Notes: generated by a model not told the origin, from the letters alone. Shown: positions 5,735 to 54,527, numbered from the stretch's first letter. The stretch is 64,000 nucleotides of DNA from Dehalococcoidia bacterium (GCA_963662615.2 CAXXSR010000001.1:1344001-1408000), one strand, 5' to 3'. A program made the numbers and translations.

Positions 5735-5959
5735 TCAATCGCGAAAGACGATGTCGGCGTCCTCTTCCACGTAGACCCGGTCGCCAATCCGGACCGGCAG
5801 CGGCCCGTGTAGATCCAGGAGGACGCGGGCCTCCAGCTGATCGACGCCGTTCAACCGCACCAGTGGAAACCCGGGCTGCCCCCGTCCCAGCCCCACGATC
5901 TCAATGCGGTCGCGCCGCCCCTCTTCGCGGGCACCCAGAGACGGCGGATCGTTGGTCAC
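5735..5959 (-). CDS. hypothetical protein
   Basis: Protein-like beta-rich sequence (RIEIVGLG...VRIGDRVYVEED) filling the gap; start uncertain. Confidence 0.45.
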   Translation of the reverse strand: MTNDPPSLGAREEGRRDRIEIVGLGRGQPGFPLVRLNGVDQLEARVLLDLHGPLPVRIGDRVYVEEDADIVFRD

Positions 5960-41725: not shown

Positions 41726-41973
41726 GTCTGATCGCACCGCGCCGACAGCAGCCGCACCTGCCCCTACACTAGATTCAAGGCGTCGCGGCGGCCGCGGACT
41801 TAGCGGCGGGGGAGCGCAACGCGGCACGAACGGCTGGCGCCGCCGCGATCAGGGAAAAAGGGACGGGCCGCAAGGGCCGGTCCCTTCTTGGCGTTGCGCA
41901 GCCGGCCACTGTGCCGCCGGCCATTGTGCAGCCGGACGGGCGCCGCGCCTTGACGGCAGGGGAGGGGACGGGC

Positions 41974-44900
41974 GTGGTCGCGTCGGAGAGCACAGTCGCC
42001 GATGGAATCAAGGCCGGTCTGCTCAGCGGGCTGATGCCCGCCGTGGTCGCCGAAGTGCGTCGCGCCCTCGCCGACGCCGACGCGCCTCCCTTCGGATCCA
42101 GCGCAAGCACGAACGACCAACGCGGGCCCACTTCTCTCGCAGACGATCCGCCGGCCGACGCGCTCGTTAAAAAAACCGACGCGCTTGTTAAAGAATTGGG
42201 TGTCCCAGACGGCGCCAAGGCGGCCGTCATCGCCGCGCTGGCGATGCTCGCGCCGGGACCCGTGCTACTGGTCACGGCCCAGCCCCGGCAGGCCCGCGCC
42301 ATGCTCGACGATCTGCCCGCCTGGCTTCCCTCCCCGCCGCAGCGCCTCGTTCTGCCCTTCCCCGCGCGCGAGTCGCTGCCTTACGAGCAGCGCCGCACCG
42401 ACAGCGCCGCCGCACATGCCCGCCTCCGCGTGCTCGCCGCTCTCGCCGCCGGCGAGCGACCCCTGATCGTCACCGACGTCCAGGCCCTCAGCCAGCGCAC
42501 CCTCCGCCGCGGCGTCGCGCCGCCGGCACTGCGCGCCGGCGCACCCCTCGCGATCGAGCCGTTCCTGACCGCTCTCGATGCCGCTGGCTACCGCGCGGCC
42601 GCTGTCGTCGACGAGCGAGGCGCCTTCGCCCGCCGAGGCGGCATCATTGACATCTTCCCGCCCACTGCCGCGCGGCCCCTCCGCATTGAACTGATCGGCG
42701 ACGAAGTGGAGAGCGTGCGCCACTTCGATCCCGTCACCCAACGCTCCATCGAGCCCGTGGCGGAAGCGACACTGGGCGTCGCCAGCGAAGCCGCAGTCGA
42801 TGAGGAAGCGCGAACGCTCGCCGCCTCCCTGCCCGCCCGCGGCGAGCCTCCCTCTTCATCCCGCACCTGGGACTGGTCCCAAGACCTCGATCAGATCGAA
42901 CGCGGCGCCCTTCCCACCGGCCTCGACTTCTGGACCCCGTTCCTGGCCCGTGGCGCCCTCTGGGACCACCTCCCCCCGACGACGCTCCTCGTCTGGGACG
43001 AACCGGACGATGGCCGGCGCCACCTCAACGAACTCGACGACCTCGCCGTCCGCGCCCGCGAGAGCCTCGAGCGACGCGGGGAGATTCCAGCGGGACTGCC
43101 GCTCCCGCACATGCCCTGCAACGAACTCCTCGCCGGCCTGGGGCCGCTCCGGCCTCGTATCAACCTCAACCGCTTCACCACCCACGTGCCGGACTCACCG
43201 GCCGCCGCGGCCTCCCCACCGGGCACGGAGCACAGCGCCCCAGCGCGTTCATCCACGGAGCCCGCCATCTCTGCGCCTCCGGACGCAAGGCGCGCCAGCG
43301 CGGGCTCCCAACCTGGGGTGGAGCAAACTGACCCATCGCGATGGTTAAAAACACCCCCCGGCTCGACCTCGCCGCAAACCACCCACGCGGCTGCGGCCTC
43401 CGAACCGGGCGCGGAGCAAACTGCCCCGTCGCGATGGTTAAAAACACCCCCCGCCTCTACCTCGCCCGACGCCACCCCCGTCGCCGCGGCCTCCGAACCG
43501 GTCGCGGAGCAAACCGCTCCAGCGCGATGGTTAAAAAAGCGGTTGGGGTTTGCGTCCGTCAACACCTACGGCGGCCGCCTGCACACCCTCATCGACGACC
43601 TCCGCCGCGCACACCAAAGAGCGGATCACATCACCGTCGTGTCGTTGCAGGCGGCGCGCCTCGCCGAACTCTTCGACGAGTACGGCCTGGCGGTCCAACG
43701 TCCCGACACCCTCCCCGCTCCGCCCTCGCCCGGCGCGGTCACCATCCTACGCGGCTCGCTGCCGCAGGGCTGGCGACTGCGGCCCGACAACGGCGGCGGC
43801 GAACAGATCCTCATCACCGACACGGAGATTTTCGGCTTTGCCAAGCAACGCCGTCTCCGCGCCCCCTCACGCTCCAAGCACCCCACGTTTCTGCAAGACC
43901 TGCGACCGGGCGACTTCGTCGTCCACATCGAGCACGGCATCGGCCGCTTCGTCGGCGTCACTCGCGAGCGCATCGGTGAGCGCGAGCGGGAGTACCTCGA
44001 ACTCGAGTATGCGGAAAGCGATCGCCTCCTCGTCCCCACCGACCAGCTCCACCGCCTTCAACGCTACGTCGGTCCCGGCGACGGCACGCCGTCCCTGACG
44101 CGACTCGGCACGCAACACTGGCGGCGGGCCAAAGAGCGCGTCAGCGGCGCGGTCCGTGACCTTGCCGAGCAGCTCCTCCAGCTGCACGCCGCCCGCCAAT
44201 TTCTCCCCGGCATCGCCGCCCCCTCGGACGGCCCCTGGCAGATGGAATTGGAGGCCGCCTTCCCCTACGTGGAGACGGCCGACCAGATCGAGGCCGTGCG
44301 CGCGGCCAAAGCGGACATGGAGCGGCCACGACCCATGGATCGCATCATCGTCGGCGATGTCGGCTACGGCAAAACGGAGGTCGCCGTCCGCGCCGCCTTC
44401 AAGTCCGTCACCGGCGGCTACCAGGTCGCCATGCTCGTCCCCACCACCGTCCTCGCCCAACAGCACTTCAGCACCTTCCGCGAGCGCATGGCCCCCTTCC
44501 CAGTCCGCATTGAGATGCTTTCGCGCTTCCGCTCGCCCGCTGAGCAGAAAGCGATCGTCGCGGGGCTCGACGGCGGCGCCATCGACGTCGTCATCGGCAC
44601 CCACCGGCTCCTCCAAAAAGACGTGCGCTTCAAGTCCCTCGGCCTCGTCATCATCGACGAGGAACAGCGCTTCGGCGTCGCGCACAAAGAGACCCTGAAG
44701 CAGCTGCGCCGTGAGGTGGACGTGCTCACCCTCTCCGCCACCCCCATCCCGCGCACGCTGCACATGGCCCTCAGCGGCATCCGCGACACCTCCACCATCG
44801 AGACCCCGCCCGAAGAGCGACTGCCCATCACCACCTACGTCATGGAGACCGACGACCGCGTCGTGCGCGAAGCGGTCCTCCGCGAGCTGGAACGCGGTGG

Positions 44901-45963
44901 GCAGGTCTACTTCGTCCACAACCGCGTGCAGAGCATTGAGGGCGTCGGCCGCTGGCTGCGCGACCTCGTGCCCGAAGCGCGCATTCTCGTCGGCCACGGG
45001 CAGATGCCGGAAGACCGGCTCCAAAAGGTGATGACCGTGTTCGTCGCCGGCGACGCCGACGTCCTCCTCAGCACCACCATCATCGAGTCGGGCCTCGACA
45101 TCCCCAACGTCAACACCATCATCGTCCACCAGGCGCAACGCTTTGGCCTGGCGCAGCTCTACCAGCTGCGCGGCCGCGTCGGCCGCAGCGCCGCCCAGGC
45201 CTACGCCTACCTCCTTTACGATCGCCACCAACCCCTGACCGAAACCGCCCAGAAGCGCCTCCAGACCGTCTTCGAGGCCACCGAACTCGGCGCCGGCTTC
45301 CAGATCGCCCGGCGCGACCTGGAGATCCGCGGCACCGGCAACATGCTCGGCGCCGAGCAGAGCGGGCACATCGGCGCCGTCGGGTTCGAGTTGTATACGC
45401 AGCTCATGGCCGACGCCGTCGAAGGGCTGCGCGCCCACCGCGAGGGCCGGCCGCCGCAGCCGTCGCGTCGCGGTCCCACCGTCGCCCTGGACCTGCCGCT
45501 CGTCGCCCACATCCCGGACTCCTACATTGAAGACCTCAACCTCCGCCTCTCGATCTATCAGCAGCTCGCGACTTTGGAGACGCCTGAGGAAGCCGACGCC
45601 ATGATCGCCAACCTCCGCGATCGCTTCGGGCCTCCACCCGCCCCCGTCACCACCCTCCTCCGCACCGTCCGCGTGCGCGCCCTCGCCGCCCGTCTCGGCG
45701 CGGATTCCCTCCAGCGCGAGGAGGAGCGGATCGTCCTCCGCCTGCCGGTGGGCCTCGGCTTCAACGACGCCCAGCGCCGTCAGCCACTCCCCGGCGGCGT
45801 CACCATGACTCCCCGCACCCTCCGCATCGACCTCCGCCACCACGGCGAACGCTGGTTGGACGCGCTGGAGCCTCTCCTGGAGCAGCTTGGCGCCGCAGTG
45901 CCTTCCCCGCACAACGCCGTCGCCACTGCCACCGCGACTGCACCCGCAACCGCGCCGCCGTAG
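41974..45963 (+). CDS. mfd: transcription-repair coupling factor
   Basis: [46 protein letters not shown]-terminus; GGAGG before GTG 41974. Confidence 0.96.
43200..43540 (+). repeat. in-frame 93-bp (31-aa) tandem repeat inside mfd
   Basis: GCGATGGTTAAAAA at 43338, 43431 and 43524, plus a degenerate first copy. Confidence 0.9.
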
Positions 45964-46036
45964 CGCTCTCGCCCCCGGCCCCGAGTGCTAGCATCAACTC
46001 CGACCTGGACCCCTACCGCAATGAGCACGACCACGT

Positions 46037-46113
46037 CGGGGCGTAGCGCAGTCCGGTAGCGCACTTGACTGGGGGTCAAGAGGTCGCCGGTTCAAATCCG
46101 GCCGCCCCGACCA
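46037..46113 (+). tRNA. tRNA-Pro(GGG)
   Basis: Acceptor CGGGGCG/CGCCCCG, anticodon arm CTTGA-CTGGGGG-TCAAG, GGTTCAAATCC T-loop, encoded CCA. Confidence 0.97.
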
Positions 46114-46309
46114 TCTCTTTCTGCCACTTCGATCCGCCATCCGCTGCCGAACCCCTGCTGCGACAGGTGAACGGCAGCGTCCCTCCGCCGCCCCACCCCG
46201 CGTAATCCCCGACACCTTCGCCGGCGCCGCGCACCCCACCGGCCCCGTAACGGGCTGCGCTGTCACCTGTCTATCTACGCTGGCCCGAACCCGTCCCGAA
46301 AGCCGCCAC

Positions 46310-46688
46310 GTGATCACGCTCGCGCACTTCTTGATCGTCATCAGCCTCTGGACCGGCGCCAGCGTGACAACCGTGCACGAGCCTGATCCGGCCACCGTCC
46401 TCCGCGTCACGCAGGCGCTCGCCGGCCTGCGCGTATCACGACGAATCGCAGCCGGGCCGGGTCACGCTCTGGGACTGTCGGCCGATCCTCGAGGGCCGCG
46501 AGATCGTCTGGGCCGGCGTCGATCCCTACCGCACGCTCTTGCATGAGGTGGCCCACTGGCAGGACACCCTGCATGACGGCGCCGAGAACGGATCGCTCTG
46601 CGGCATGGAGTCCGATCCCTGGGACGGCAGCTACTGGAGCGACCCGGCCGAACGCTGCGCCCGCGCGCGTGCGGCCGCCGGCGTCTAA
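46310..46688 (+). pseudogene. frameshifted small secreted HExxH metallopeptidase-like protein
   Basis: Signal-like MITLAHFLIVISLW in one frame; RTLLHEVAHWQD...stop 46688 in the +1 frame, which has no usable upstream start. Confidence 0.55.
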
Positions 46689-47078
46689 CGCATTTCTCGG
46701 CCTCTTCGCGCCCGCTCAGCTCCGCCCTACAGCCGCCCGCTTGGCTCCTCGGCCCGACGAAGCGGTCGCCGCTCCAAGGTCCGGAATCTCGAAGGCCACT
46801 CTGAGGTCTCGCTGCACTTAGGGGCAGAAAGCGTCCTCAGAGCGTCACAAACGTGTGCCTAACGTGTCTACTAGGCGTCCCAAGTGGCGGGGTCCGTTTC
46901 GTATTCCGACGGACTCACCAGTCGATGATCGAGCCGACGCCTGTGAGAGTGGCGGACGGGGAGGCCGAGCATGGAGCCGCTCCGCGCTGAGCGAGGCAGC
47001 CGGTCGCCCAAGAATGACGTTCAAACATCGTCTGCGGGAATTTGCGCCCGCCGTTTAGAGATGCCCCGAATTATCCGA

Positions 47079-47150
47079 GCCTTCGATCACATAAGCGCCT
47101 TCGATCACATAAGGGCCTTCGATCACATAAGGGCCTTCGATCACATAAGC
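47079..47150. repeat. 18-bp tandem repeat x4
   Basis: GCCTTCGATCACATAAG[C/G] x4. Confidence 0.95.
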
Positions 47151-47223
47151 GATGGCGCTGTCGGGATCCCCGCCAGCCTCGTTGGACCTGCGCGGGCCGG
47201 CCGTTCATGAGGGAGTGACGACT

Positions 47224-47463
47224 ATGCGACTGTGGAACACTGGTATGCAGATGATGGCGCTGGCCGCGGTCACGCTGACCTTGGCACGGTCATACCTGGA
47301 CCCGACGGGCGGCGGCATCCTCATCTCGCTCCTGCTCGCCGGCACGGCGAGCCCCATCATCATTTGGCGGCTGTTTCTCGGTCGGTTCCGGCTTCGCCGC
47401 GACTCGGATGAAGGGGAAGTGGACACGACCGCCAACGCGACGGATGAAAGCTCAGAGCGTTGA
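47224..47463 (+). CDS. small membrane protein with YLDP-x-G motif
   Basis: GAGGGAG RBS; SYLDPTGGG then hydrophobic helix, basic patch and acidic tail; stop overlaps next start (TTGA). Confidence 0.75.
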   Translation: MRLWNTGMQMMALAAVTLTLARSYLDPTGGGILISLLLAGTASPIIIWRLFLGRFRLRRDSDEGEVDTTANATDESSER

Positions 47464-48890
47464 TCGTGACCGACGTCGACCCGCCGCCCGGGGACGTCGT
47501 GCGGGCGGACCTTGGCTCGTTCCGCGACCCGCGGAACGGCGTCTTCCGGCTGGACGGCAGAGTCCTTCGCTACTTCGATGAGCGCGGCTGGCAGACGTTC
47601 GAGAGCCTCCGTCGCTGCGGTGTACTCGACGCGCTCACCGACGAGAGGCTGATCCTCCCGGCACTGGAGCTCAGCGCCGACGAGTTGCGACGCATTTGCG
47701 AGGCCGCCCCGTCCGCCGTCGGCGCGATCGAGCAGCCCCGCGTGCCCTTTTTCTCCTACTCGTACGAGTGGACTTTCAACATGCTCCGCGACGCCGCCCT
47801 ACTGCAGCTCGAGGTCTTGGACCGGCTCCTAGAGGCGGGGTTCATCCTCAAGGATGGCCAGGCCGACAACGTCCAGTTCATCGGCAGCCGACCTGTCTTC
47901 ATCGACGTTGGCTCGATCGAGCCGTACGAGCCCGGACAGGTCTGGCCTGGCTACGCGCAGTTCTGCGCCACGTACCTCACGCCACTTCTGATCGAGGCGA
48001 AGACAGGTGTGCCCTTCCAGCGGCTCCTGCGCGGGGCCGCGCAGGGCATCAGTGTCGGCGAAGCGGCTCGCCTCCTCCCTTGGCGCACGCGCCTGCGGCG
48101 CGGGCCGTTCATCCATGTCTATCTCCAGGCGTGGCTCCAGCGTCGCTACGCGGACACCGCCGACAGAGCGCGGTCTGCCTTCGGCGGTCGTGTGGTCGAC
48201 GCGGACGGCGTCCGACGCCAGGTGCGTTCGCTGCGCAGTCTCGTGCAGAACCTGCCTGCGCCAAGGGCAACGTCGGTGTGGTCCGGCTACGACCCGGATG
48301 CTTCGTACGCCCCTTCCGCGCGGGAAGTGAAACAGCGTGTCGTCGAGCAGGCGCTGGCCGCCGCCGCCCCCAGCTCGGTCTGGGATGTTGGCTGCAACAC
48401 CGGCGAATACAGCCGTCGTGCGGTTCAGCACAGCCAGTACGTCGTGGCGATGGACTTCGACCCCGCCGCCGTCGACCGGCTCTACCTCGACTGTCGTTCA
48501 AGCGAGTCGATCTTGCCTCTGGTGCAAGACATCGCCGATCCGTCGCCTGACCAGGGCTGGGCGCACGGCGAGCGCCAGGGGCTGCGCTCCCGCGGGCCCG
48601 CCGATTTCGTGCTCTGGCTCGCCCTGAGCCATCACATGGCCTTTGACCGCGCGGTCCCGCCGGCCCGGCAGGCGGCGTGGATTCGTGCCTTGGCGCGAGG
48701 TGGTGTGGTCGAGTTCGTCCCGCCGTCCGATCCGATGGTGCGGCGCATGCTCGCCCTCCGAAATGACCAGACGCCCGACCCGCGTTATACCCGCTCTGCA
48801 TTTGAGGCCGCACTCGCAGAGCGCTTCGGTTCAATGCAAGCGCACGAACTCCCCGACTCGGAGCGCGTGCTCTACACCGTCGCGGCATAG
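47460..48890 (+). CDS. NoeA-like protein: kinase-like N-domain plus class I SAM methyltransferase
   Basis: SFRDP, SYSYEWTF, LKDGQADNVQF, FIDVGS; VWDVGCNTG, MDFD, LALSHH. Confidence 0.82.
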   Translation: MIVTDVDPPPGDVVRADLGSFRDPRNGVFRLDGRVLRYFDERGWQTFESLRRCGVLDALTDERLILPALELSADELRRICEAAPSAVGAIEQPRVPFFSYSYEWTFNMLRDAALLQLEVLDRLLEAGFILKDGQADNVQFIGSRPVFIDVGSIEPYEPGQVWPGYAQFCATYLTPLLIEAKTGVPFQRLLRGAAQGISVGEAARLLPWRTRLRRGPFIHVYLQAWLQRRYADTADRARSAFGGRVVDADGVRRQVRSLRSLVQNLPAPRATSVWSGYDPDASYAPSAREVKQRVVEQALAAAAPSSVWDVGCNTGEYSRRAVQHSQYVVAMDFDPAAVDRLYLDCRSSESILPLVQDIADPSPDQGWAHGERQGLRSRGPADFVLWLALSHHMAFDRAVPPARQAAWIRALARGGVVEFVPPSDPMVRRMLALRNDQTPDPRYTRSAFEAALAERFGSMQAHELPDSERVLYTVAA

Positions 48891-48906
48891 CGGCACGGCG
48901 CCGGAC

Positions 48907-50673
48907 ATGTCCACGCTCGACCACCTACACACGCTCGCTCGGACGCCGCTGGCGTCTGTGGCGCGACGGAGCGTCGTCGTTTTCGGCCTCTTCTACGTGC
49001 TCTGGATGACGTCGTACTTCGACTTCATGAAGGACAGCCTGGCGCTGGTCAATCCGATTGCCGGGGACGGGGACGCGGCGCTGATCGTGATGACCCTCAC
49101 CGGCTACGCGCTCGTCGTCTCGGTCGTGTTCGCGGCGCTGACCCGTCGATGGTCGGAGCGGCGCTTCCTCGCCGCCGTCGTCGGGGTAGGCGGCGCGCTG
49201 ACCGTTTCCAACGCCGTTGCGCTCGGTTTGGACTCCATGCTGTCGTGGGGGTCGTTGGTCCTGCTCGCTTTGGCCGCGATCGCGGTCTGGCGTCTCGGCC
49301 GGCACGACTTGATCTGGGTGAGCACTGCGCTCGGTATCGTGGCGTCGCTGTATGCCTGGGGCGACCATGTCACCTTCGCGATCGACTCGGTGAGCGGGAA
49401 CGATGCGGCGCCGGCGGCCGTCGTGGAAGTGCCTGAGACAGATAACCCGCTGCCCAGCGTCTATGTTCTCCTCTTGGACGAGCTCTCCCTCAGCCTCGTC
49501 AACGCGTACGCCAGCTTCACGGAGCTGCCCAACATCGGCCGGCTCGTGGAGCAAGGCACCTACTTGCCGCGCGCCTACTCGACGACGGATCTCACCATGA
49601 CAAGCGTGCCGTCGGCGCTCACGGGCCTGCTCCCCAGCAGGGAGCGCTTCGCCAGGGGCAACAGCGGCTACGAGACCGACTGGCTGCGCGACGCGAACAA
49701 CCTCATCAGCGACCTGGAACGACTCGGCTACCGCGTCACGATCACGCCCGACATCTTCGGCGCCTGCGCCGTCGTGGCATGTTCGCGCCTGGAGGCCGCC
49801 GACCTGCTGGAGCCCACCCTCAATGAGCGCGACCTCTTCCAGTTCGCGGTCGACCATTTCGTGCACCAGGTCTCGTTCGGGCAACAGCCCGCGCCCGACG
49901 TGGGCGAACTCTTCAGGGGCCAGGCATTCGCGTACCTGGGGGGAGAACAGGTCGATCTGGGACACGACACGGACCAGCCCCAGTTCGTCTTCCTCCACTT
50001 CATGCAGACGCACTACCCGTACACACACGCCCGTGACGGCACGCTGCACGGCAGAGAACCAGTCTCGTTCGACCACGGCACCGACGACAACGCCGCGACG
50101 ATCGCGGCGAACGCGTTCGAGTCCGTCCTCTGGGCCGACCTGGTGCTGGGGCCCATCGTCGACGCGTTGCTGGCGCTGCCGGCGGAGGAGCGCATTGTGC
50201 TCCTCATGTCGGACCACGGTGTGAGCTGGCGCGACGATCCATACTTCCGCCACAGGGGCACCATGCGCACACCCCAGCTGCATGTCCCTGTCGTGCTTCT
50301 GGCGCCGGGGATCGAGCCTGGCGTGGACCCGCAGCTGTTCCCGCTGATCGACACGTACCCGACGCTCGTCGACCTCATCAACGAAGCGGTCGGCGCGACG
50401 GTGCTCACCGCGCCGCGGGGGATCGACGGCCTCAGCCTCTGGGCCAGCACGACGGTGCGCCGTGAGCGTGACCACTTCGCCTTCAGCATGGGCTGCCGCT
50501 TCCAGCTTCGGGGCGACGAATGGCACTTCGTCGAGCTGTACAAGGGCTTCCACCAGCCGCCTTGCGGCACGACCTCGACCCCGGCTGAAGAGCTGGCGCT
50601 CACTCCCCAGGCCGAGACCGAGGCGCTCATCACCGCCGCCGCCGGCAGCGCCGCCGCTTCCCGTTCGCCCTGA
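48907..50673 (+). CDS. membrane-anchored sulfatase/LtaS-like (alkaline phosphatase superfamily) protein
   Basis: About 5 N-terminal TMs; LLLDEL, TMTSVPSALTG, HFMQTHYPY, MSDHG, HVP. Confidence 0.82.
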   Translation: MSTLDHLHTLARTPLASVARRSVVVFGLFYVLWMTSYFDFMKDSLALVNPIAGDGDAALIVMTLTGYALVVSVVFAALTRRWSERRFLAAVVGVGGALTVSNAVALGLDSMLSWGSLVLLALAAIAVWRLGRHDLIWVSTALGIVASLYAWGDHVTFAIDSVSGNDAAPAAVVEVPETDNPLPSVYVLLLDELSLSLVNAYASFTELPNIGRLVEQGTYLPRAYSTTDLTMTSVPSALTGLLPSRERFARGNSGYETDWLRDANNLISDLERLGYRVTITPDIFGACAVVACSRLEAADLLEPTLNERDLFQFAVDHFVHQVSFGQQPAPDVGELFRGQAFAYLGGEQVDLGHDTDQPQFVFLHFMQTHYPYTHARDGTLHGREPVSFDHGTDDNAATIAANAFESVLWADLVLGPIVDALLALPAEERIVLLMSDHGVSWRDDPYFRHRGTMRTPQLHVPVVLLAPGIEPGVDPQLFPLIDTYPTLVDLINEAVGATVLTAPRGIDGLSLWASTTVRRERDHFAFSMGCRFQLRGDEWHFVELYKGFHQPPCGTTSTPAEELALTPQAETEALITAAAGSAAASRSP

Positions 50674-50837
50674 CCTGTCCTTCTTTCTAGGGAAGGAGCC
50701 CGTCGAAGGGTCGAAAGGCGACCGAGTCCTGCACCCCCTCTCCATCGCTCACCGATGGAGAGGGGGCTGGGGAGTGAGGTCATCCCGTCACCCTGACCCG
50801 TTCGCCCTGACCCGTCCTTCCGTCTTAGGAAGGAGCC
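50660..50837. repeat. REP-like palindrome between two 41-bp direct repeats
   Basis: Direct repeats 50660-50700 and 50797-50837; 14-bp perfect stem 50734-50766. Confidence 0.8.
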
Positions 50838-50992
50838 TGCCAAAGGAGCGAACGGCGTCGACGCGGCCGGGCCTGACCTTGACGCCATCCGCTACCCTGC
50901 ACCCTGTTCGGGACGCTGGCGCCGTGGCAGAGCCGCGGCGCCCCTACCCGGCCTGAAGCAACAACGGCAGGAGAGAAAGGACACGGAACACC

Positions 50993-51562
50993 ATGACGCA
51001 AACGACAACCGAGCCGCGGATGCTCAACGGGGTCAACGTCGATACCCTCTACGCGACGCTGGACGCCATCAAGGGTCAGCCGGACCTCGGCAAGTTCCAG
51101 TTCCGCACCAAGAACCGCTGGATCGACGGGGCGCACAACCAGACCACCATCACCGACTTCTACGGCGCCGGCCAGGACCAGCCGCACACCCAATCCTTCA
51201 CGATCGACGCGGGCGAGCCCGCGGTGTTGTTAGGGACCGACACGGGGGCGAACCCAGCAGAGGCTGCCTTGCATGCTCTTGCAGCCTGCCTCACGACAAC
51301 GCTCGTCTACTCCGCGGCCGCGCGCGGCGTGAAATTGTCGGAGGTTGAGTCCACCCTGGAAGGGAACTGCGACGTGCAGGGGGCCCTGGGCCTCTCGGAC
51401 GACGTGCCCAACGGCTTCCAGGACATCACAGTGCCGATCAAGATAAAGGGCGACGCCCCACGCGAGAAACTTCAGGCGATTGTCAAGAATGCTCAGGCTC
51501 GATCGTTCATCTTCGACACCATGAGCAGGGAGATTCCGGTCAGCGTCAAGCTCGTGGACTAG
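50993..51562 (+). CDS. OsmC family protein
   Basis: NGVNV, GEPAVLLGTDTGANPAE...LAACL. Confidence 0.88.
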   Translation: MTQTTTEPRMLNGVNVDTLYATLDAIKGQPDLGKFQFRTKNRWIDGAHNQTTITDFYGAGQDQPHTQSFTIDAGEPAVLLGTDTGANPAEAALHALAACLTTTLVYSAAARGVKLSEVESTLEGNCDVQGALGLSDDVPNGFQDITVPIKIKGDAPREKLQAIVKNAQARSFIFDTMSREIPVSVKLVD

Positions 51563-51744
51563 CCCTCTCTCAGCGCTGTTGATCGAGCAAGGAGCCCGTG
51601 CCATCCCGGAGGAGCTTGCCTCGGGTCCGACTGCACTTCAGAGAGGACGGTCCGACATAGGATCGGAATCTGCGTCCGCGGCCGACGACAGGGGTCCGGC
51701 GCGCGGAAAGATCGTTCGGACCGACGGCGGCTGAGGAAGAACCG

Positions 51745-52161
51745 ATGGCGACGGACGCGAACCCAGCGCAAGCCCTGACGGTCGGCGAGGCATTGTTGGA
51801 GGCGCTCTGTGCCCGCGCCTTCGATCGCGTTGAAGGCATCCTTGCCCCCGACATGCGGATGCGTACGCTCCTGCCAAGTGGGCACCACGACTACGCCGGT
51901 GCGGGCGAAGCCACAGCGGCGTTTACCGATTGGTTTGGCGGGGCGGACGACTTCGAGGTAGTCCAAGCCGGCGCGAATGAGGTCGCAGAGGCTCGCTTGC
52001 ACCTCTCCTATCGCTTCCGCTTGCGACGACCGAGAGCGGTGCATACCGAGGTCGTCGAGCAGCACGCGTTCTGCAAAGTTCTCGACGGGCGGATCGTAAC
52101 GATCGACCTGGTGTGCTCCGGCTTTCGACCTGCCCCGGAGAATGCCGGCGTCGTTCAGTGA
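51745..52161 (+). CDS. SnoaL/NTF2-like protein
   Basis: LAPDMRMR...FTDWF...EQH...DGRI...CSGF pattern. Confidence 0.7.
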   Translation: MATDANPAQALTVGEALLEALCARAFDRVEGILAPDMRMRTLLPSGHHDYAGAGEATAAFTDWFGGADDFEVVQAGANEVAEARLHLSYRFRLRRPRAVHTEVVEQHAFCKVLDGRIVTIDLVCSGFRPAPENAGVVQ

Positions 52162-52336
52162 AACGAAGCTAGCGGCCGAGACGCCCCTGGAGGTGCACAA
52201 TTCCATCCCCGGAGTCGGAGAGAGTGGTGCCCTCCCACATCGAGCCCGCACGGCGTCGGCGCTGGGCCGGCCGCTGTGATGGCCGGCGTGCTCGAACCTC
52301 GCTGAGCCGCCCACAAGAGTTCGGGGGGATCGTGGC

Positions 52337-53536
52337 GTGAAGGGGACGGATTACGACATCGTCGTCGTGGGCGGTGGCGTCTGCGGCGCGAGCCTGGCGA
52401 CAGTGATGGCGCGAGCCGACACGCGCGTCCTGGTGTTCGAACGTGAAACGCAGTTTCGGGACCGAGTGCGTGGGGAGTACGTTGAGCCCTGGGGCGTGGC
52501 GGAACTGCACGCGCTGACCATCTACCGCACCCTCAAAGAGGCAGGGGCACACGAGCTGCTGACATTGACGACCGGCTCTGCCCGCAAGGAGCCCCGCGAC
52601 CTGGTCCGGACCTCGGCGCCTCGGCGGCCCGCTCTGACCTTCTACCATCCCAGCGCGCAAGAGGCCCTGCTGAACAGGGCGGCCGCCGCCGGGGCGGAGG
52701 TCCGGCGCGGTGCATCGGTGCGCAAGGTCCGGCCGGCCTCGCCACCGAGCGTCGTGGTGCATCACGACGGGCGCAGCGAGGAGATCACCGCTCGACTGGT
52801 CGTGGGCGCCGACGGGCGCAGCTCACTGGCGCGCAAAGCACTGGCACCGGCCGATCACACCAACGACCAAGCGCGCCTCATCGCCGGCGTGCTCCTGGAC
52901 GGCGTATCGACGCCCGAGAACAGCGCCCTGATCGCCATGAACCCCAAGGCGAGCCTCGTTGCCTATCTGTTCCCGCAGGGTGGGGGACGCGCTCGGGCCT
53001 ACGTGGCGTTCCGAGCAGGCGCCTGCGAACCCATGCGGGGCGAGGGCGATCTCGATCGCCTGATCGACGCCAGCGTGGAGGCCGGAGCGCCGGCCGAGGC
53101 GTATGCGGGCGTCACCGCGAGCGGGCCACTGGCGACGTTTGCGGGTACGGAACGCTGGGCGGATCATCCCTATCGGGATGGCGTCGTCCTGATCGGCGAT
53201 GCGGCCGGCATCAGCGACCCCACCTGGGGGCAGGGCCTCTCGCTGGGCTTCCGCGACGTGCGCGTGCTGCGCGACCTTCTGCTGGCGAGCCAAGACTGGG
53301 ACGCGGCCGGGCACGCCTATGCGGTCGCGCACGATTGCTACTTCCTCACGACCCTGAAGGTGGTGGGCTGGGTGACCGAGTTCTTCTTGGGCGTGGGTCC
53401 GGAGGCGGACGAGCGGCGGGCGCGGGCGCGGCCCCTCGCGCGCCAAGACCCCACGCGCGTGCCCGATCACATTGTCAGCGGGCCGGATCTTCCGGCGGAC
53501 GAGACCGTGCGGCGCCGCTTCTTCGGCGAGGAGTAG
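52337..53536 (+). CDS. FAD-dependent monooxygenase
   Basis: VVGGGVCG, VGADG, LIGDAA...PTWGQG. Confidence 0.9.
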   Translation: MKGTDYDIVVVGGGVCGASLATVMARADTRVLVFERETQFRDRVRGEYVEPWGVAELHALTIYRTLKEAGAHELLTLTTGSARKEPRDLVRTSAPRRPALTFYHPSAQEALLNRAAAAGAEVRRGASVRKVRPASPPSVVVHHDGRSEEITARLVVGADGRSSLARKALAPADHTNDQARLIAGVLLDGVSTPENSALIAMNPKASLVAYLFPQGGGRARAYVAFRAGACEPMRGEGDLDRLIDASVEAGAPAEAYAGVTASGPLATFAGTERWADHPYRDGVVLIGDAAGISDPTWGQGLSLGFRDVRVLRDLLLASQDWDAAGHAYAVAHDCYFLTTLKVVGWVTEFFLGVGPEADERRARARPLARQDPTRVPDHIVSGPDLPADETVRRRFFGEE

Positions 53537-53804
53537 GGCGATCCCGGTCACCGTGGAGTTGCCCAGCGACTAGCGCACATCGGGTCGGTGGGCAGCGGCA
53601 GCCGGTCGCTGTCGGGCCGGCCCCCTCTTTGCGCCAATGTCTTCGCGCCAATGCCTTCGCCCCAAAAGCGCGCGCGGCGGCGGCATCGCCAACAGCTGCG
53701 ACGCTGGTACCCTCTCCCTCGTCCCGCAGTAGCGCCCCTACAACTGCGGAAGCGACGGGGCGTCTCGCCGCCGGGGAATGCAGATGACGGGGCTCCGCTT
53801 GAAG

Positions 53805-54527
53805 ATGCATCAGCCAACGCTGCGCCTCGCCGCGCTCCTCGCGCTCGCCGCGCTCCTCGGCCTCTCCGGGACGCACGCGCTCCTCGGGGCCCAGGGGGAC
53901 GGCGCCGGAGAAACCCCCGAAGTCGGGGCCTTGCAGCTCCCGCAAGGGTTGAGCCTTGTGGGCTGGTTCGGCGGGCCCACGACCTCTGCGGAGTTGCTCG
54001 CCGCCAATCCCGCCATCCAGCGCATCTGGTCGTTCGATCCCGACCGCCGGCGCTGGATCCTTGACGCGCCGGAACTGCCGGTCGCGCTTCGCCCCACCAT
54101 CGAGATCGTTCGCGGCTCGGGCTTTTTCGTCGTCGCCGCGCACCGCACGACGCTCCTCGTCCCGCTCGCCGGCCCTCCCATCGCCAACGTCTGTCCCCGT
54201 CCCAGCCCCGTCCGCTTCGCCGACCCCACCATCATCGTGCGCGTGCCCACGCCGGGCGCGCTCGTATCGAGCCCGCTCCCTCTCGACGGCACGGCCGGCG
54301 TCTTCAACGCCACCATCCGCATCCGCATCGTCGCTGCCGGCGGCGCCATCCTCGCCGACACCTTCACGACTGCGGCCGCCGCCGGCCCCGCCCGCAGCCC
54401 CTTCGCCGCGGACGTCGCCTACGCCGGAAGCGAACAGCGACCCGGCTGCCTCCAGCTCTTTGAGGAGTCCCCCAACGACGGCAGTCTCATCAATGAAGTG
54501 CAGGTCCCGGTCATCCTCGGTCCCTGA
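53805..54527 (+). CDS. secreted protein with Gmad2 immunoglobulin-like domain
   Basis: Signal peptide; PGALVSSPL...GTAGVFNAT...EESPNDGS. Confidence 0.7.
   Translation: MHQPTLRLAALLALAALLGLSGTHALLGAQGDGAGETPEVGALQLPQGLSLVGWFGGPTTSAELLAANPAIQRIWSFDPDRRRWILDAPELPVALRPTIEIVRGSGFFVVAAHRTTLLVPLAGPPIANVCPRPSPVRFADPTIIVRVPTPGALVSSPLPLDGTAGVFNATIRIRIVAAGGAILADTFTTAAAAGPARSPFAADVAYAGSEQRPGCLQLFEESPNDGSLINEVQVPVILGP

Follow-up and report, generated by a model that had tools for sequence, protein, structure and literature searches.

The question raised by this locus is whether three adjacent genes form an undescribed surface-modification system, as a first-pass annotation had proposed, and what their products may do. 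The genes lie on the forward strand between positions 47224 and 50673 of the window, the 64,000-nucleotide stretch of Dehalococcoidia bacterium DNA analysed here. Translation and motif reading confirm that every sequence feature claimed for them is present. Gene 1 (47224..47463) encodes a small membrane protein of 79 residues, gene 2 (47460..48890) a two-domain enzyme of the NoeA / Lani_1194 family with 476 residues, and gene 3 (48907..50673, ATG to stop) a NoeB-type membrane enzyme of 588 residues. The coordinates bear out the proposed arrangement of three co-oriented genes: the TGA of gene 1 and the TTG start of gene 2 overlap as TTGA (an alternative start, GTG, lies two codons after the TTG), and 16 nt separate the TAG of gene 2 from the ATG of gene 3.

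A Shine-Dalgarno-like GAGGGAG run is found 7-8 nt 5' of the gene 1 ATG. Further upstream, 4.1 copies of an 18-bp unit form a tandem repeat (47079..47151; Tandem Repeats Finder score 132, 96% matches) that belongs to repeat family D1 and ends 73 nt 5' of gene 1. This repeat may be a candidate operator or promoter element of the cassette.

The translation of gene 2 carries LKDGQADN, FIDVGS and DVGCNTG, and its resemblance to rhizobial NoeA, proposed in the first-pass annotation, is real. In tblastn, residues 19-473 match S. meliloti NoeA with 37.1% identity (E 5e-73), and the matched feature carries the annotation 'nodulation protein NoeA'. The Sinorhizobium matches listed have 37.1-37.5% identity at 96% coverage. 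Among plasmid records 65 match, 64 of them with one place that covers at least 80% of the query. There are more than 1164 full-length homologues, and the nearest named ones are from Dehalococcoidia/Chloroflexi, not from rhizobia. A hydropathy scan of gene 2 found no hydrophobic segments, and its product is, judging from the sequence, most likely a cytoplasmic enzyme.

The AlphaFold model of gene 2 has a pLDDT of 84.9, and that of the N-domain alone (residues 1-270, 47460..48269) a pLDDT of 89.6. A Foldseek search with the N-domain had been set beforehand as a test that could refute the proposed kinase-like fold; all of the 50 matches listed are kinases, with a best E of 7.7e-5. With VIA-align the 50 matches listed are protein-kinase or pseudokinase domains throughout, at Z 8.0-9.8 (best match: Z 9.8, rmsd 4.0, 198 residues aligned), although such scores are middling (TM 0.3-0.4, Z 8-10) and Z 7-8 is common for unrelated models. 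The case for an atypical protein-kinase-like fold is therefore made by the fact that every listed match is a kinase, together with the positions of the motifs. R37, D132, N137 and D149 are invariant in alignments of 24 and 31 rows. When these residues are mapped onto PKA following the statement made for Lani_1194 (PMC9758233), an Arg takes the place of the kinase beta3 Lys and the catalytic Asp/Asn/Asp are retained.

The C-domain (about residues 275-476, 48282..48887) is a class I SAM-dependent methyltransferase, as had been proposed. Four Pfam methyltransferase families match residues 289-435, all under their curated cut-offs; for Methyltransf_23 the E-value is 7.3e-5, and the 23 bits fall under the cut-off of 27. 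With the whole gene 2 model, Foldseek finds methyltransferases at E ~1e-6 and probability 1.00. In motif I, VWDVGCNTG, the residues D309, G311, N313 and G315 are invariant in the alignment.

Gene 1 has no match in Pfam or NCBIfam. Its database relatives number 3068, and the best 120 of the 3068 are all unnamed or 'hypothetical'. The protein starts with a signal-like N-extension (residues 1-23), followed by the motif SYLDPTGGG, one hydrophobic helix (residues 31-47 by hydropathy) and an Arg-rich C-flank. Tyr24 and Asp26, the Tyr-x-Asp of YLDPTGGG, are invariant in a 78-row alignment. To study the small protein and its neighbours we used 80 loci with a homologue of gene 2. By profile, a gene 1 homologue is present in 77 of the 80, almost always directly 5' of the NoeA gene, and one of the three loci without it has just 16 nt of upstream sequence. 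The small ORF is a real gene.

Among these 77 homologues, Ala precedes the Tyr directly in 60, Ser/Thr stands at +5 in 71, and K/R follows immediately behind the helix in 74. The signal-like extension stops just before the Tyr, mostly in Ala. Its occurrence differs between phyla: it is found in Nitrospirota (5/5), Pseudomonadota (4/4), Acidobacteriota (11/14) and Chloroflexota (2/12), but in none of the 30 Actinomycetota. The presence of the extension in diderm phyla and its absence from the 30 actinomycetotal loci point to an N-out topology. By the positive-inside rule we infer that the small protein is bitopic, with Tyr-x-Asp at the outer face and the basic tail in the cytoplasm; the Tyr-x-Asp would then most likely be at or near the mature N-terminus. 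This anatomy appears not to have been described before.

The gene 3 product has about five TM helices near its N-terminus (residues 23-152) and, behind them, a domain of the sulfatase/alkaline-phosphatase superfamily (about residues 180-525). Hydropathy gives four segments above threshold in residues 23-128 and a weaker fifth at 135-152, and Pfam Sulfatase matches residues 186-491 (E 1.9e-20). The motif DLTMTS places Thr230 at the nucleophile position, where it aligns with the Cys of sulfatases; the formylglycine motif C/S-x-P-x-R is missing, with T-M-T-S-V at that place. As the earlier reading had it, Thr takes the place of Cys, and the same holds for 74 of the 91 gene 3-family ORFs in the alignment. 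Another 10 of the 91 have Cys; they are separate paralogues, mostly on the opposite strand, and because such true CxPxR sulfatases are drawn in, the iterated gene 3 profile is broad. In the family, D191, H369 and D436 are invariant, and conservation reaches 90% or more at T230, H364 and H437.

Judged by loop charge, the catalytic domain of gene 3 probably faces outward. LtaS and EptA are membrane enzymes of the alkaline-phosphatase superfamily that use a Thr nucleophile and act on phospho-esters outside the cytoplasm. An outward domain with a Thr nucleophile would point to a phospho-ester transferase or hydrolase rather than a sulfatase, and this is our prediction for gene 3. The proposal that gene 3 is LtaS-like holds for its architecture but not for its catalytic domain, for which the sequence profile puts phosphonate monoester hydrolase and sulfatases closer than LtaS. 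Against PDB these span 3.7e-26 to 1e-20 (phosphonate monoester hydrolase 3.7e-26, choline sulfatase 3.8e-24), while LtaS/LtaP follow at 9e-15 to 7e-13 (LtaP 9.3e-15, LtaS 3e-13) and EptA/MCR are absent among the 60 matches listed.

Co-occurrence beside NoeA homologues had also been set as a refuting test. In 63 of the 80 loci the flanks reach 2 kb or more in either direction, and 49 of these 63 have a sulfatase-family ORF of the Thr type no further than 1 kb from the pair formed by the small ORF and the NoeA gene. Together with the small ORF in 77 of 80 loci this is far beyond chance, and the three genes are one conserved cassette. Overlaps of 4 nt occur in many loci. However, 12 of the 63 have no Thr-type ORF in their 6-kb flanks, so the third gene is not obligatory beside the pair. 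No other gene family near the cassette recurs in over 13 of the 80 loci; those seen in 13 and in 12 are again sulfatase-family ORFs. The cassette occurs widely in free-living phyla.

On pSymA of Sinorhizobium the order is nodL, a 71-residue ORF, noeA and noeB. The 71-residue ORF carries AHA-YLDPGTGS and a TM helix, and NoeB has a Pfam Sulfatase match (2e-10) behind four N-terminal hydrophobic segments. Pairwise BLASTP of gene 3 against S. meliloti NoeB is not significant (E 0.047), and it is the Pfam domain, the architecture, the position and the iterated, broad profile that link the two; ORFs in two rhizobial loci (L031 and L068) match this profile at 4.9e-27 and 4.2e-23. We read the trio of the window as the same cassette as the unnamed 71-residue ORF, noeA and noeB of S. 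meliloti / S. medicae. The host-range nodulation genes noeA and noeB are said to have been known genetically since 1995.

The host genome is GC-rich, 2.66 Mb in size, and has one copy of each cassette gene. Gene 2 was not found in any of 24 genomes from the same family, and it is present in one of 16 genomes from other families of the class. ARAGORN predicts a tRNA-Pro (GGG) on the forward strand (46037..46113), immediately 5' of the cassette region, and synteny with relatives ends at this tRNA. In three of five relatives the tRNA-Pro(GGG) is downstream of Mfd, directly after it in two, and not one of the genes that follow the tRNA in the window was found at that place in the five. Further, the GC skew shifts between 46 and 54 kb of the window. 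The cassette looks horizontally acquired in this genome.

What, then, may the cassette do? With some reserve, we lean towards a conserved NoeA/NoeB-type cassette that works across the membrane to decorate a glycoconjugate or lipid, either exported or belonging to the envelope. At the inner face, NoeA would first phosphorylate and then methylate a substrate associated with the membrane, as WbdD does with the opposite domain order. At the outer face the NoeB-type enzyme would transfer or trim a phospho-ester group, and the small protein would be the integral membrane subunit that links the two enzymes. The substrate and both reactions are guesses.

A different division of labour, that of the first-pass annotation and in our view unlikely, would let NoeA make a methyl-phosphate donor from which gene 3 transfers methyl-phospho to a surface acceptor, with the small protein as carrier or acceptor. 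The fusion of kinase and methyltransferase follows the logic of WbdD, and the Tyr, the Asp and the usual Ser/Thr of the small protein would be on the catalytic side of gene 3. Two Thr-type paralogues stand beside one NoeA gene in 13 of the 80 loci, which fits one donor and several acceptors. However, with the kinase-methyltransferase in the cytoplasm and the motif outside, NoeA could not modify the motif directly. Further, the cassette loci have no conserved flippase or transporter, and nothing points to phosphate as the methyl acceptor.

It is also conceivable, and we would not expect it, that the system is built around the small protein, which would be no accessory but a dedicated peptide carrier or primer for surface phospho-modification. 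Its N-terminal turn, Tyr-x-Asp-Pro/Ala-Gly-Ser/Thr-Gly-Ser, would be exposed at the outer membrane face, in diderms after removal of the signal peptide and in monoderms directly. NoeB-type Thr-nucleophile enzymes would covalently load this turn with a phospho-ester group, possibly methyl-phospho from a donor made by the cytoplasmic NoeA. If true, this would be a protein-anchored intermediate of a kind not known for enzymes of the LtaS/EptA type, and it would supply a biochemical role for NoeA/NoeB in host range.

It is very improbable that the small ORF is a RiPP-like precursor, tailored by the kinase-methyltransferase in the way of lanthipeptide kinases and processed or exported by gene 3. 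A short ORF translationally coupled to a kinase-like enzyme, with a leader-like N-extension before a conserved motif that contains Ser/Thr, is what such a precursor would look like. In contrast, the conserved part is the membrane helix with its K/R stop-transfer flank and not a variable core, the 'leader' is missing in all 30 Actinomycetota, the motif and the kinase would be on opposite sides of the membrane, and the loci share no conserved protease, cyclase or ABC exporter.

We give equally little weight to gene 3 as a true sulfatase on sulfated glycans (e.g. Nod-factor-like) with NoeA independent of it. Its Pfam Sulfatase match, the phosphonate monoester hydrolase and sulfatases that are its best solved profile relatives, and the true CxPxR sulfatase genes that 7 of the 80 loci have close to the cassette would agree with this. 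The Thr in place of C/S-x-P-x-R, here and in most of the family, and the tight operon coupling to NoeA, with the 16-nt gap here and the 4-nt overlaps elsewhere, argue against it.

A kinase, a methyltransferase and a protein of alkaline-phosphatase fold also occur together in Pgl/BREX type 2. We find an anti-phage defence system of this kind hardly credible here, in spite of the same three enzyme classes, the patchy distribution and the site beside a tRNA gene: PADLOC defence models have no family for genes 1 and 3 and match gene 2 just weakly (mad2, through the methyltransferase motif, E 4.3e-4, 17 bits), the gene 3 product crosses the membrane several times and has a domain predicted to face outward, an ATPase and a large DNA methyltransferase are missing from the cassette, and the rhizobial members are described as having a nodulation phenotype (PMC4053727).

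The reading of the cassette as one that decorates a glycoconjugate or lipid across the membrane can be set beside several known systems. For gene 2 a comparable logic is that of WbdD, the chain terminator of the E. coli O9a O-antigen, which has methyltransferase and kinase domains, phosphorylates and then methylates the phosphate, and works on the cytoplasmic side of the membrane, where its substrate is a glycan that will be exported. Both combine a kinase fold and a class I methyltransferase in one polypeptide. As had been claimed, the order is opposite: WbdD is built as methyltransferase, kinase and coiled coil, whereas gene 2 has the kinase-like domain first, then the methyltransferase, and ends at residue 476 with no coiled-coil ruler. 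WbdD (4azt) comes 46th in the Foldseek list for the whole model (E 1.7e-5), matched through the methyltransferase, and phmmer with gene 2 did not find it among PDB sequences at E up to 1. We know of no small-protein or alkaline-phosphatase-fold partner of WbdD.

Gene 3 shares with enzymes of the LtaS, EptA (MCR) and PptA type the roughly five N-terminal TM helices, the outward alkaline-phosphatase-superfamily domain, the Thr at the nucleophile position and the Asp/His metal ligands; it differs in its profile scores. The plan of three parts also resembles BcsE-BcsF-BcsG of enterobacterial cellulose modification, an analogy made by description: one small protein that crosses the membrane once, a partner in the cytoplasm and a membrane phosphoethanolamine transferase of the alkaline-phosphatase superfamily. 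To our knowledge, BcsE is neither a kinase nor a methyltransferase.

The pSymA operon has the same three genes in the same order and on the same strand, and its upstream ORF has the motif, helix and tail design of gene 1, with YLDPGTGS where gene 1 has YLDPTGGG. The window cassette differs in that it has no nodL or nod box and stands alone beside tRNA-Pro.

By its published description, the Lani_1194/NoeA kinase-methyltransferase family has two conserved neighbours, found by bioinformatics in 2022 in 65% and 38% of 816 neighbourhoods, one of them with an alkaline-phosphatase fold (NoeB) (PMC9758233). Its passages on the family therefore already hold the kinase-methyltransferase, the NoeA homology and both neighbours, and the system cannot be called undescribed. 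There the proteins are treated as candidate secreted effectors in a survey of the Legionella pan-kinome, whereas nothing suggests secretion of the gene 2 product; the small neighbour gets no description in the main text on the family (PMC9758233). Compared by description, gene 2 shares with Lani_1194 the kinase-like N-domain and class I methyltransferase C-domain, the Arg for the beta3 Lys (R38 for PKA K72), the D/N/D kept in atypical motifs (D166/N171/D184), and conserved neighbours on the same strand, one of alkaline-phosphatase fold (PMC9758233). Lani_1193-1195 of Legionella anisa are most likely a further match to the cassette, with Lani_1193, as we infer, the counterpart of the small protein, and the window trio is a further member of a cassette already in print.

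The window has a G+C of about 0.69, and at 47224-50673 it holds three genes that all have the same orientation. Gene 1 (47224-47463, plus strand) encodes a small protein of 79 aa, MRLW...ARS-YLDPTGGG; a GAGGGAG run lies directly 5' of its ATG, and the hydrophobic helix at residues 31-47 is followed by an Arg-rich stretch and then an acidic tail. The TTG start of gene 2 (47460-48890, plus strand, 476 aa) overlaps the stop of gene 1 as TTGA, and a GTG two codons after this TTG is a possible alternative start. Gene 3 (plus strand, 588 aa) runs from an ATG at 48907, 16 nt after the TAG of gene 2, to 50673. All the motifs that the first-pass annotation had quoted are found in the sequences of these three genes.

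Some repeats are seen close to the genes. In noncoding DNA at 47079-47151, 73 nt 5' of gene 1, an 18-bp unit with the consensus GCCTTCGATCACATAAGC is repeated 4.1 times in tandem (96% matches); the repeats may be a binding array for a regulator. A 61-nt direct repeat (50660-50720 and 50797-50857, 82% identity, 137 nt apart) begins at the end of gene 3; both copies hold a short palindrome (AGGGAAGG / CCTTC...), and the repeat is perhaps a terminator or a REP-like element. In a search for island borders no promoter-like sites were found, and terminator-like sites were no more frequent than chance.

In a database search the full-length relatives of gene 2 number more than 1164; they have about 470 aa each and are unnamed or labelled 'class I SAM-dependent methyltransferase', 'PrmA' and the like. 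Using tblastn against plasmids, 65 records were matched, 57 of them from Sinorhizobium. The Sinorhizobium match has 37% identity across 96% of the protein, and the annotation beneath it reads 'noeA: nodulation protein NoeA'; the likeness to NoeA noted in the first-pass annotation is right.

For the protein of gene 2, Pfam gives weak methyltransferase matches at residues 289-435, every one under the curated cut-off, and no match in the N-terminal half; phmmer against the PDB gives nothing meaningful. When the whole protein is modelled with AlphaFold (pLDDT 84.9), Foldseek finds methyltransferases only, and WbdD, at rank 46 in that list, is matched through its methyltransferase domain. Residues 1-270 were therefore folded separately, using 30 homologues (pLDDT 89.6). 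For this N-terminal domain there are 102 Foldseek matches at E <=0.001, and the best 50 of these 102 are all kinases, with PknG, CK2, AceK, YihE and others among the matches listed. In an independent VIA-align search of 48,161 chains the best 50 are likewise protein-kinase or pseudokinase domains, the top one with Z 9.8 and rmsd 4.0 over 198 aligned residues. The scores of both searches are middling; the domain is called kinase-like because the matches are uniform and because four invariant residues, R37, D132, N137 and D149, stand at the expected kinase places. The kinase-like fold proposed earlier for this domain is seen in every Foldseek match listed, at such middling scores.

To study the neighbourhoods we used 80 loci: 586 of 593 pattern matches were confirmed as gene 2 homologues and the best 80 were kept. 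In 51 of the 80 loci a strict search for Y-[ILVMF]-D-P-x(1-3)-G finds an ORF whose end meets the start of NoeA. A profile built from those motif ORFs finds the small protein in 77 of the 80, so the expectation that the small ORF is conserved beside NoeA homologues holds. In 75 of the 77 it lies immediately 5' of the NoeA gene and shares its strand. It comes after NoeA in one locus (L077:7357-7578) and is divergent from it in another (L035:2260-2451, minus strand), and a third locus has an additional copy 2 kb upstream (L019:3500-3802, minus strand). Among the loci without a match, L025 has only 16 nt of upstream sequence, and inspection of L007 and L009 gave no candidate. These last two loci have in common a conserved stretch just 5' of NoeA (about 5750-5900), with a near-identical minus-strand reading; it may be an RNA element or, since both loci are closely related, plain kinship. 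In the Sinorhizobium plasmid pSymA a 71-aa 'hypothetical protein' ORF with AHA-YLDPGTGS lies between nodL and noeA and overlaps the start of noeA.

Across the 77 homologues the Tyr and the Asp are invariant. Counted from the Tyr, position -1 is Ala in 60 of 77, position +3 is Pro in 59 and Ala in 18, position +5 is Ser, Thr or Ala, Gln is found at +11 in 62 of 77, a Gly-Gly pair at +15/+16, and Lys or Arg at +25 in 74 of 77. There are 3068 database relatives at E <=0.001; the best 120 of these are mostly about 63 aa long, and among these 120 there is no Pfam domain and no name beyond 'hypothetical'. The ESM Atlas returns unnamed clusters only (best score 0.85), and the string 'YLDPG' is absent from the literature searched. 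A predicted complex of the small protein with NoeA scored 0.01 in two runs whose controls did not fold, and so speaks neither for nor against an interaction.

Five longer proteins that contain the small protein were also found. In three of them (P0248-P0250, 251-290 aa) it is N-terminal and the sequence continues into the NoeA gene, read out of frame or partly in frame, and these look like frameshifted or miscalled genes of high-GC metagenome assemblies; in the other two an unrelated or low-complexity stretch comes first and the small protein forms the C-terminus. All five were rejected as real fusions and taken as frameshifts or miscalls, and the small number of fused forms is weak evidence.

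In the small protein basic residues come right after the helix, so by the positive-inside rule the C-tail should be cytoplasmic and the Tyr-x-Asp motif on the outer face. An independent line that agrees with this topology is the distribution over phyla of a signal-like N-extension, here counted as a hydrophobic, signal-like segment with a start codon at least 14 residues before the Tyr. It is found in 0 of 30 Actinomycetota, 2 of 12 Chloroflexota, 11 of 14 Acidobacteriota, 5 of 5 Nitrospirota and 4 of 4 Pseudomonadota. Where it is absent, the distance from the Tyr back to the closest in-frame start codon is 2-7 residues in Actinomycetota and 3-14 in Chloroflexota. The small protein of the window has such an extension, MMALAAVTLTLARS preceding the Tyr, and signal peptidase would probably cut directly before this Tyr.

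Gene 3 matches Pfam Sulfatase at 1.9e-20. Four hydrophobic segments over threshold and a weaker fifth all fall in residues 23-152. Read from the sequence, the loops at residues 1-22, 77-87 and 129-134 are basic, while those at 42-56 and beyond 152 are acidic; this alternation places the catalytic domain outside. In a phmmer alignment Thr230 aligns with the formylglycine Cys of choline sulfatase. An iterated profile gathered 91 ORFs from the 80 loci, the one in the window included, and their nucleophile column has Thr in 74, Cys in 10, Ser in 3 and another residue in 4. D191, H369, D436 and G438 stand in every row of a cleaner 33-row alignment, in which T230, H364 and H437 have a conservation of 90% or more.

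The ten Cys ORFs read C-x-P-S-R; they are additional paralogues in 7 of the 80 loci, most of them encoded on the opposite strand. They lie 2-4 kb from the cassette (L016, L021, L022, L026, L028, L029 and L060), and six of these loci are from Thermoleophilia. For such true sulfatase paralogues, of which L022:10876-12705 on the minus strand is an example, the Pfam Sulfatase match is at 9e-46 and an SGSH_C domain is present.

Against PDB sequences the gene 3 profile matches phosphonate monoester hydrolase (PMH) at 3.7e-26; choline sulfatase and arylsulfatases outrank LtaP and LtaS (9e-15 to 7e-13), and neither EptA nor MCR is among the 60 matches listed. Taken together, the alignment, the architecture and this ranking indicate an enzyme with the build of the LtaS/EptA type and a sequence of the sulfatase/PMH branch. 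The earlier label 'LtaS-like' therefore fits the architecture and the Thr nucleophile, but not the sequence. Compared pairwise with S. meliloti NoeB the similarity is not significant (E 0.047); the link to NoeB is drawn because Pfam domain, architecture, position and profile are in common. Rhizobial ORFs match the gene 3 profile at 4.9e-27 (locus L031) and 4.2e-23 (L068).

How constant is the trio? Among the 63 loci whose flanks reach 2 kb or more on each side, an ORF of the gene 3 type with Thr is present in 51 and lies at most 1 kb from the pair of small ORF and NoeA in 49, while 12 have none; the predicted conservation of the putative transferase beside NoeA homologues holds to this extent. 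Over all 80 loci at least one Thr-type ORF is found in 60, and two in 13. Of the 62 ORFs directly 3', that of the window included, 39 match Pfam Sulfatase. By crude gene calling every other gene family occurs in at most 13 of the 80 loci, and the families in 13 and 12 loci are again sulfatase-family ORFs; GT4, GT2, acyltransferase, PHP and biotin carboxylase families are each found in only 4-8. From these counts the conserved unit is therefore the pair of small protein and NoeA, usually joined by one or two genes of the NoeB type, in a context that is loosely glycan or envelope; the cassette occurs in no fewer than 10 named phyla. NoeA has as its tightest partner not NoeB but a membrane protein of about 60 aa; therefore genetic or biochemical studies of noeA and noeB should include this small ORF, which is unnamed in annotation.

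In the 2.66-Mb assembly genes 1-3 are present in one copy each. Gene 2 was not found in any of 24 genomes of the same family; among 16 genomes that represent other families within the class, one carries it (44% identity). A tRNA-Pro(GGG) at 46037-46113 precedes the cassette by 1.1 kb. The GC skew, about -0.15 elsewhere, is near 0 (about -0.04 or above) at 46-54 kb. This low-skew region (46000-54000) begins at the tRNA-Pro. Two further ORFs in it were named by eye from their translations: one is OsmC-like (50993-51562), and the other (52337-53536, 399 aa) bears a GxGxxG-type motif at its N-terminus. In three of five relatives a tRNA-Pro(GGG) is found downstream of Mfd, within 700 nt in two and at about 5 kb in the third. 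Synteny with the five relatives stops at the tRNA-Pro: none of the window genes beyond it occurs in the 12 kb downstream of Mfd. In the window the 3' end of the tRNA-Pro is not repeated, no direct repeat convincingly flanks a putative island, and no att-like repeat or integrase was seen. The practical result for the window is an annotation and the note of a probably horizontally acquired accessory trait. The Mfd-like ORF itself (41911-45963, 1350 aa) has a low-complexity insert with a threefold repeated segment at about residues 450-560, which may be specific to this lineage, as the frames of the relatives are shorter (1190-1236 aa).

With the domain folds, the conserved catalytic residues of both enzymes, the operon coupling and the co-occurrence established, the most economical reading is a pathway that works on two sides of the membrane to decorate an exported glycoconjugate or lipid. 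NoeA probably acts in the cytoplasm, the catalytic domain of gene 3 and the motif of the small protein are probably outside, and the small protein would span the membrane between them. Inside, NoeA would phosphorylate and then methylate, by analogy with the logic of WbdD but with the domain order swapped; outside, the Thr-nucleophile enzyme would transfer or trim a phospho-ester, and the small protein would be a membrane subunit of the pathway. This is a concrete, testable topology: kinase-methyltransferase inside, Thr-phosphoesterase outside, small protein across the membrane.

A sharper form of the first-pass proposal has a methyl-phospho donor and the peptide as carrier or acceptor. This is possible, given that the motif and the gene 3 domain would share a compartment and that some loci have several NoeB paralogues per NoeA; however, NoeA would have no direct reach to the motif, and no flippase is conserved. 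The idea that the small ORF is a RiPP precursor fits poorly, since its conserved part is the membrane anchor and the 'leader' is absent in Actinomycetota. A BREX/Pgl-like defence system finds no support from PADLOC, and a true sulfatase appears excluded for gene 3 by its sequence, which does not have the C/S-x-P-x-R motif.

To our knowledge noeA and noeB have been host-range nodulation genes since 1995, and a biochemical function was never assigned to them. In a 2013 comparative-genomics paper noeA is a host-specific nodulation gene, whose natural truncation is linked to failure on some Medicago genotypes (PMC4053727). A 2022 survey of the Legionella pan-kinome (PMC9758233) ascribes to the family of the L. 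anisa protein Lani_1194 a kinase-like and a class I methyltransferase domain, both kept in 94% of about 2000 homologues, as well as homology to NoeA. There Arg38 stands in for Lys72 of PKA, and the equivalents of D166, N171 and D184 are retained. Lani_1193 and Lani_1195 are given as conserved same-strand neighbours in 65% and 38% of 816 neighbourhoods, and an alkaline-phosphatase fold is predicted for Lani_1195 and NoeB; the nature of Lani_1193 is not stated in the main text (PMC9758233). The literature searched has no mention of Lani_1194 later than this survey and nothing relevant on NoeB together with sulfatase.

As the family, its NoeA homology and two neighbours are printed in PMC9758233, the claim of an undescribed system is untenable, while 'biochemically uncharacterised' holds. 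What appears to be new is the anatomy of the small protein, its near-universal presence and its phylum-dependent signal-like extension. The cassette itself is already known, genetically as noeA/noeB and bioinformatically, most likely, as Lani_1193-1195, so that its novelty is below the first estimate. In relation to other enzymes, gene 3 has the architecture and the nucleophile of the LtaS/EptA type, but by sequence it falls in the sulfatase/PMH branch.
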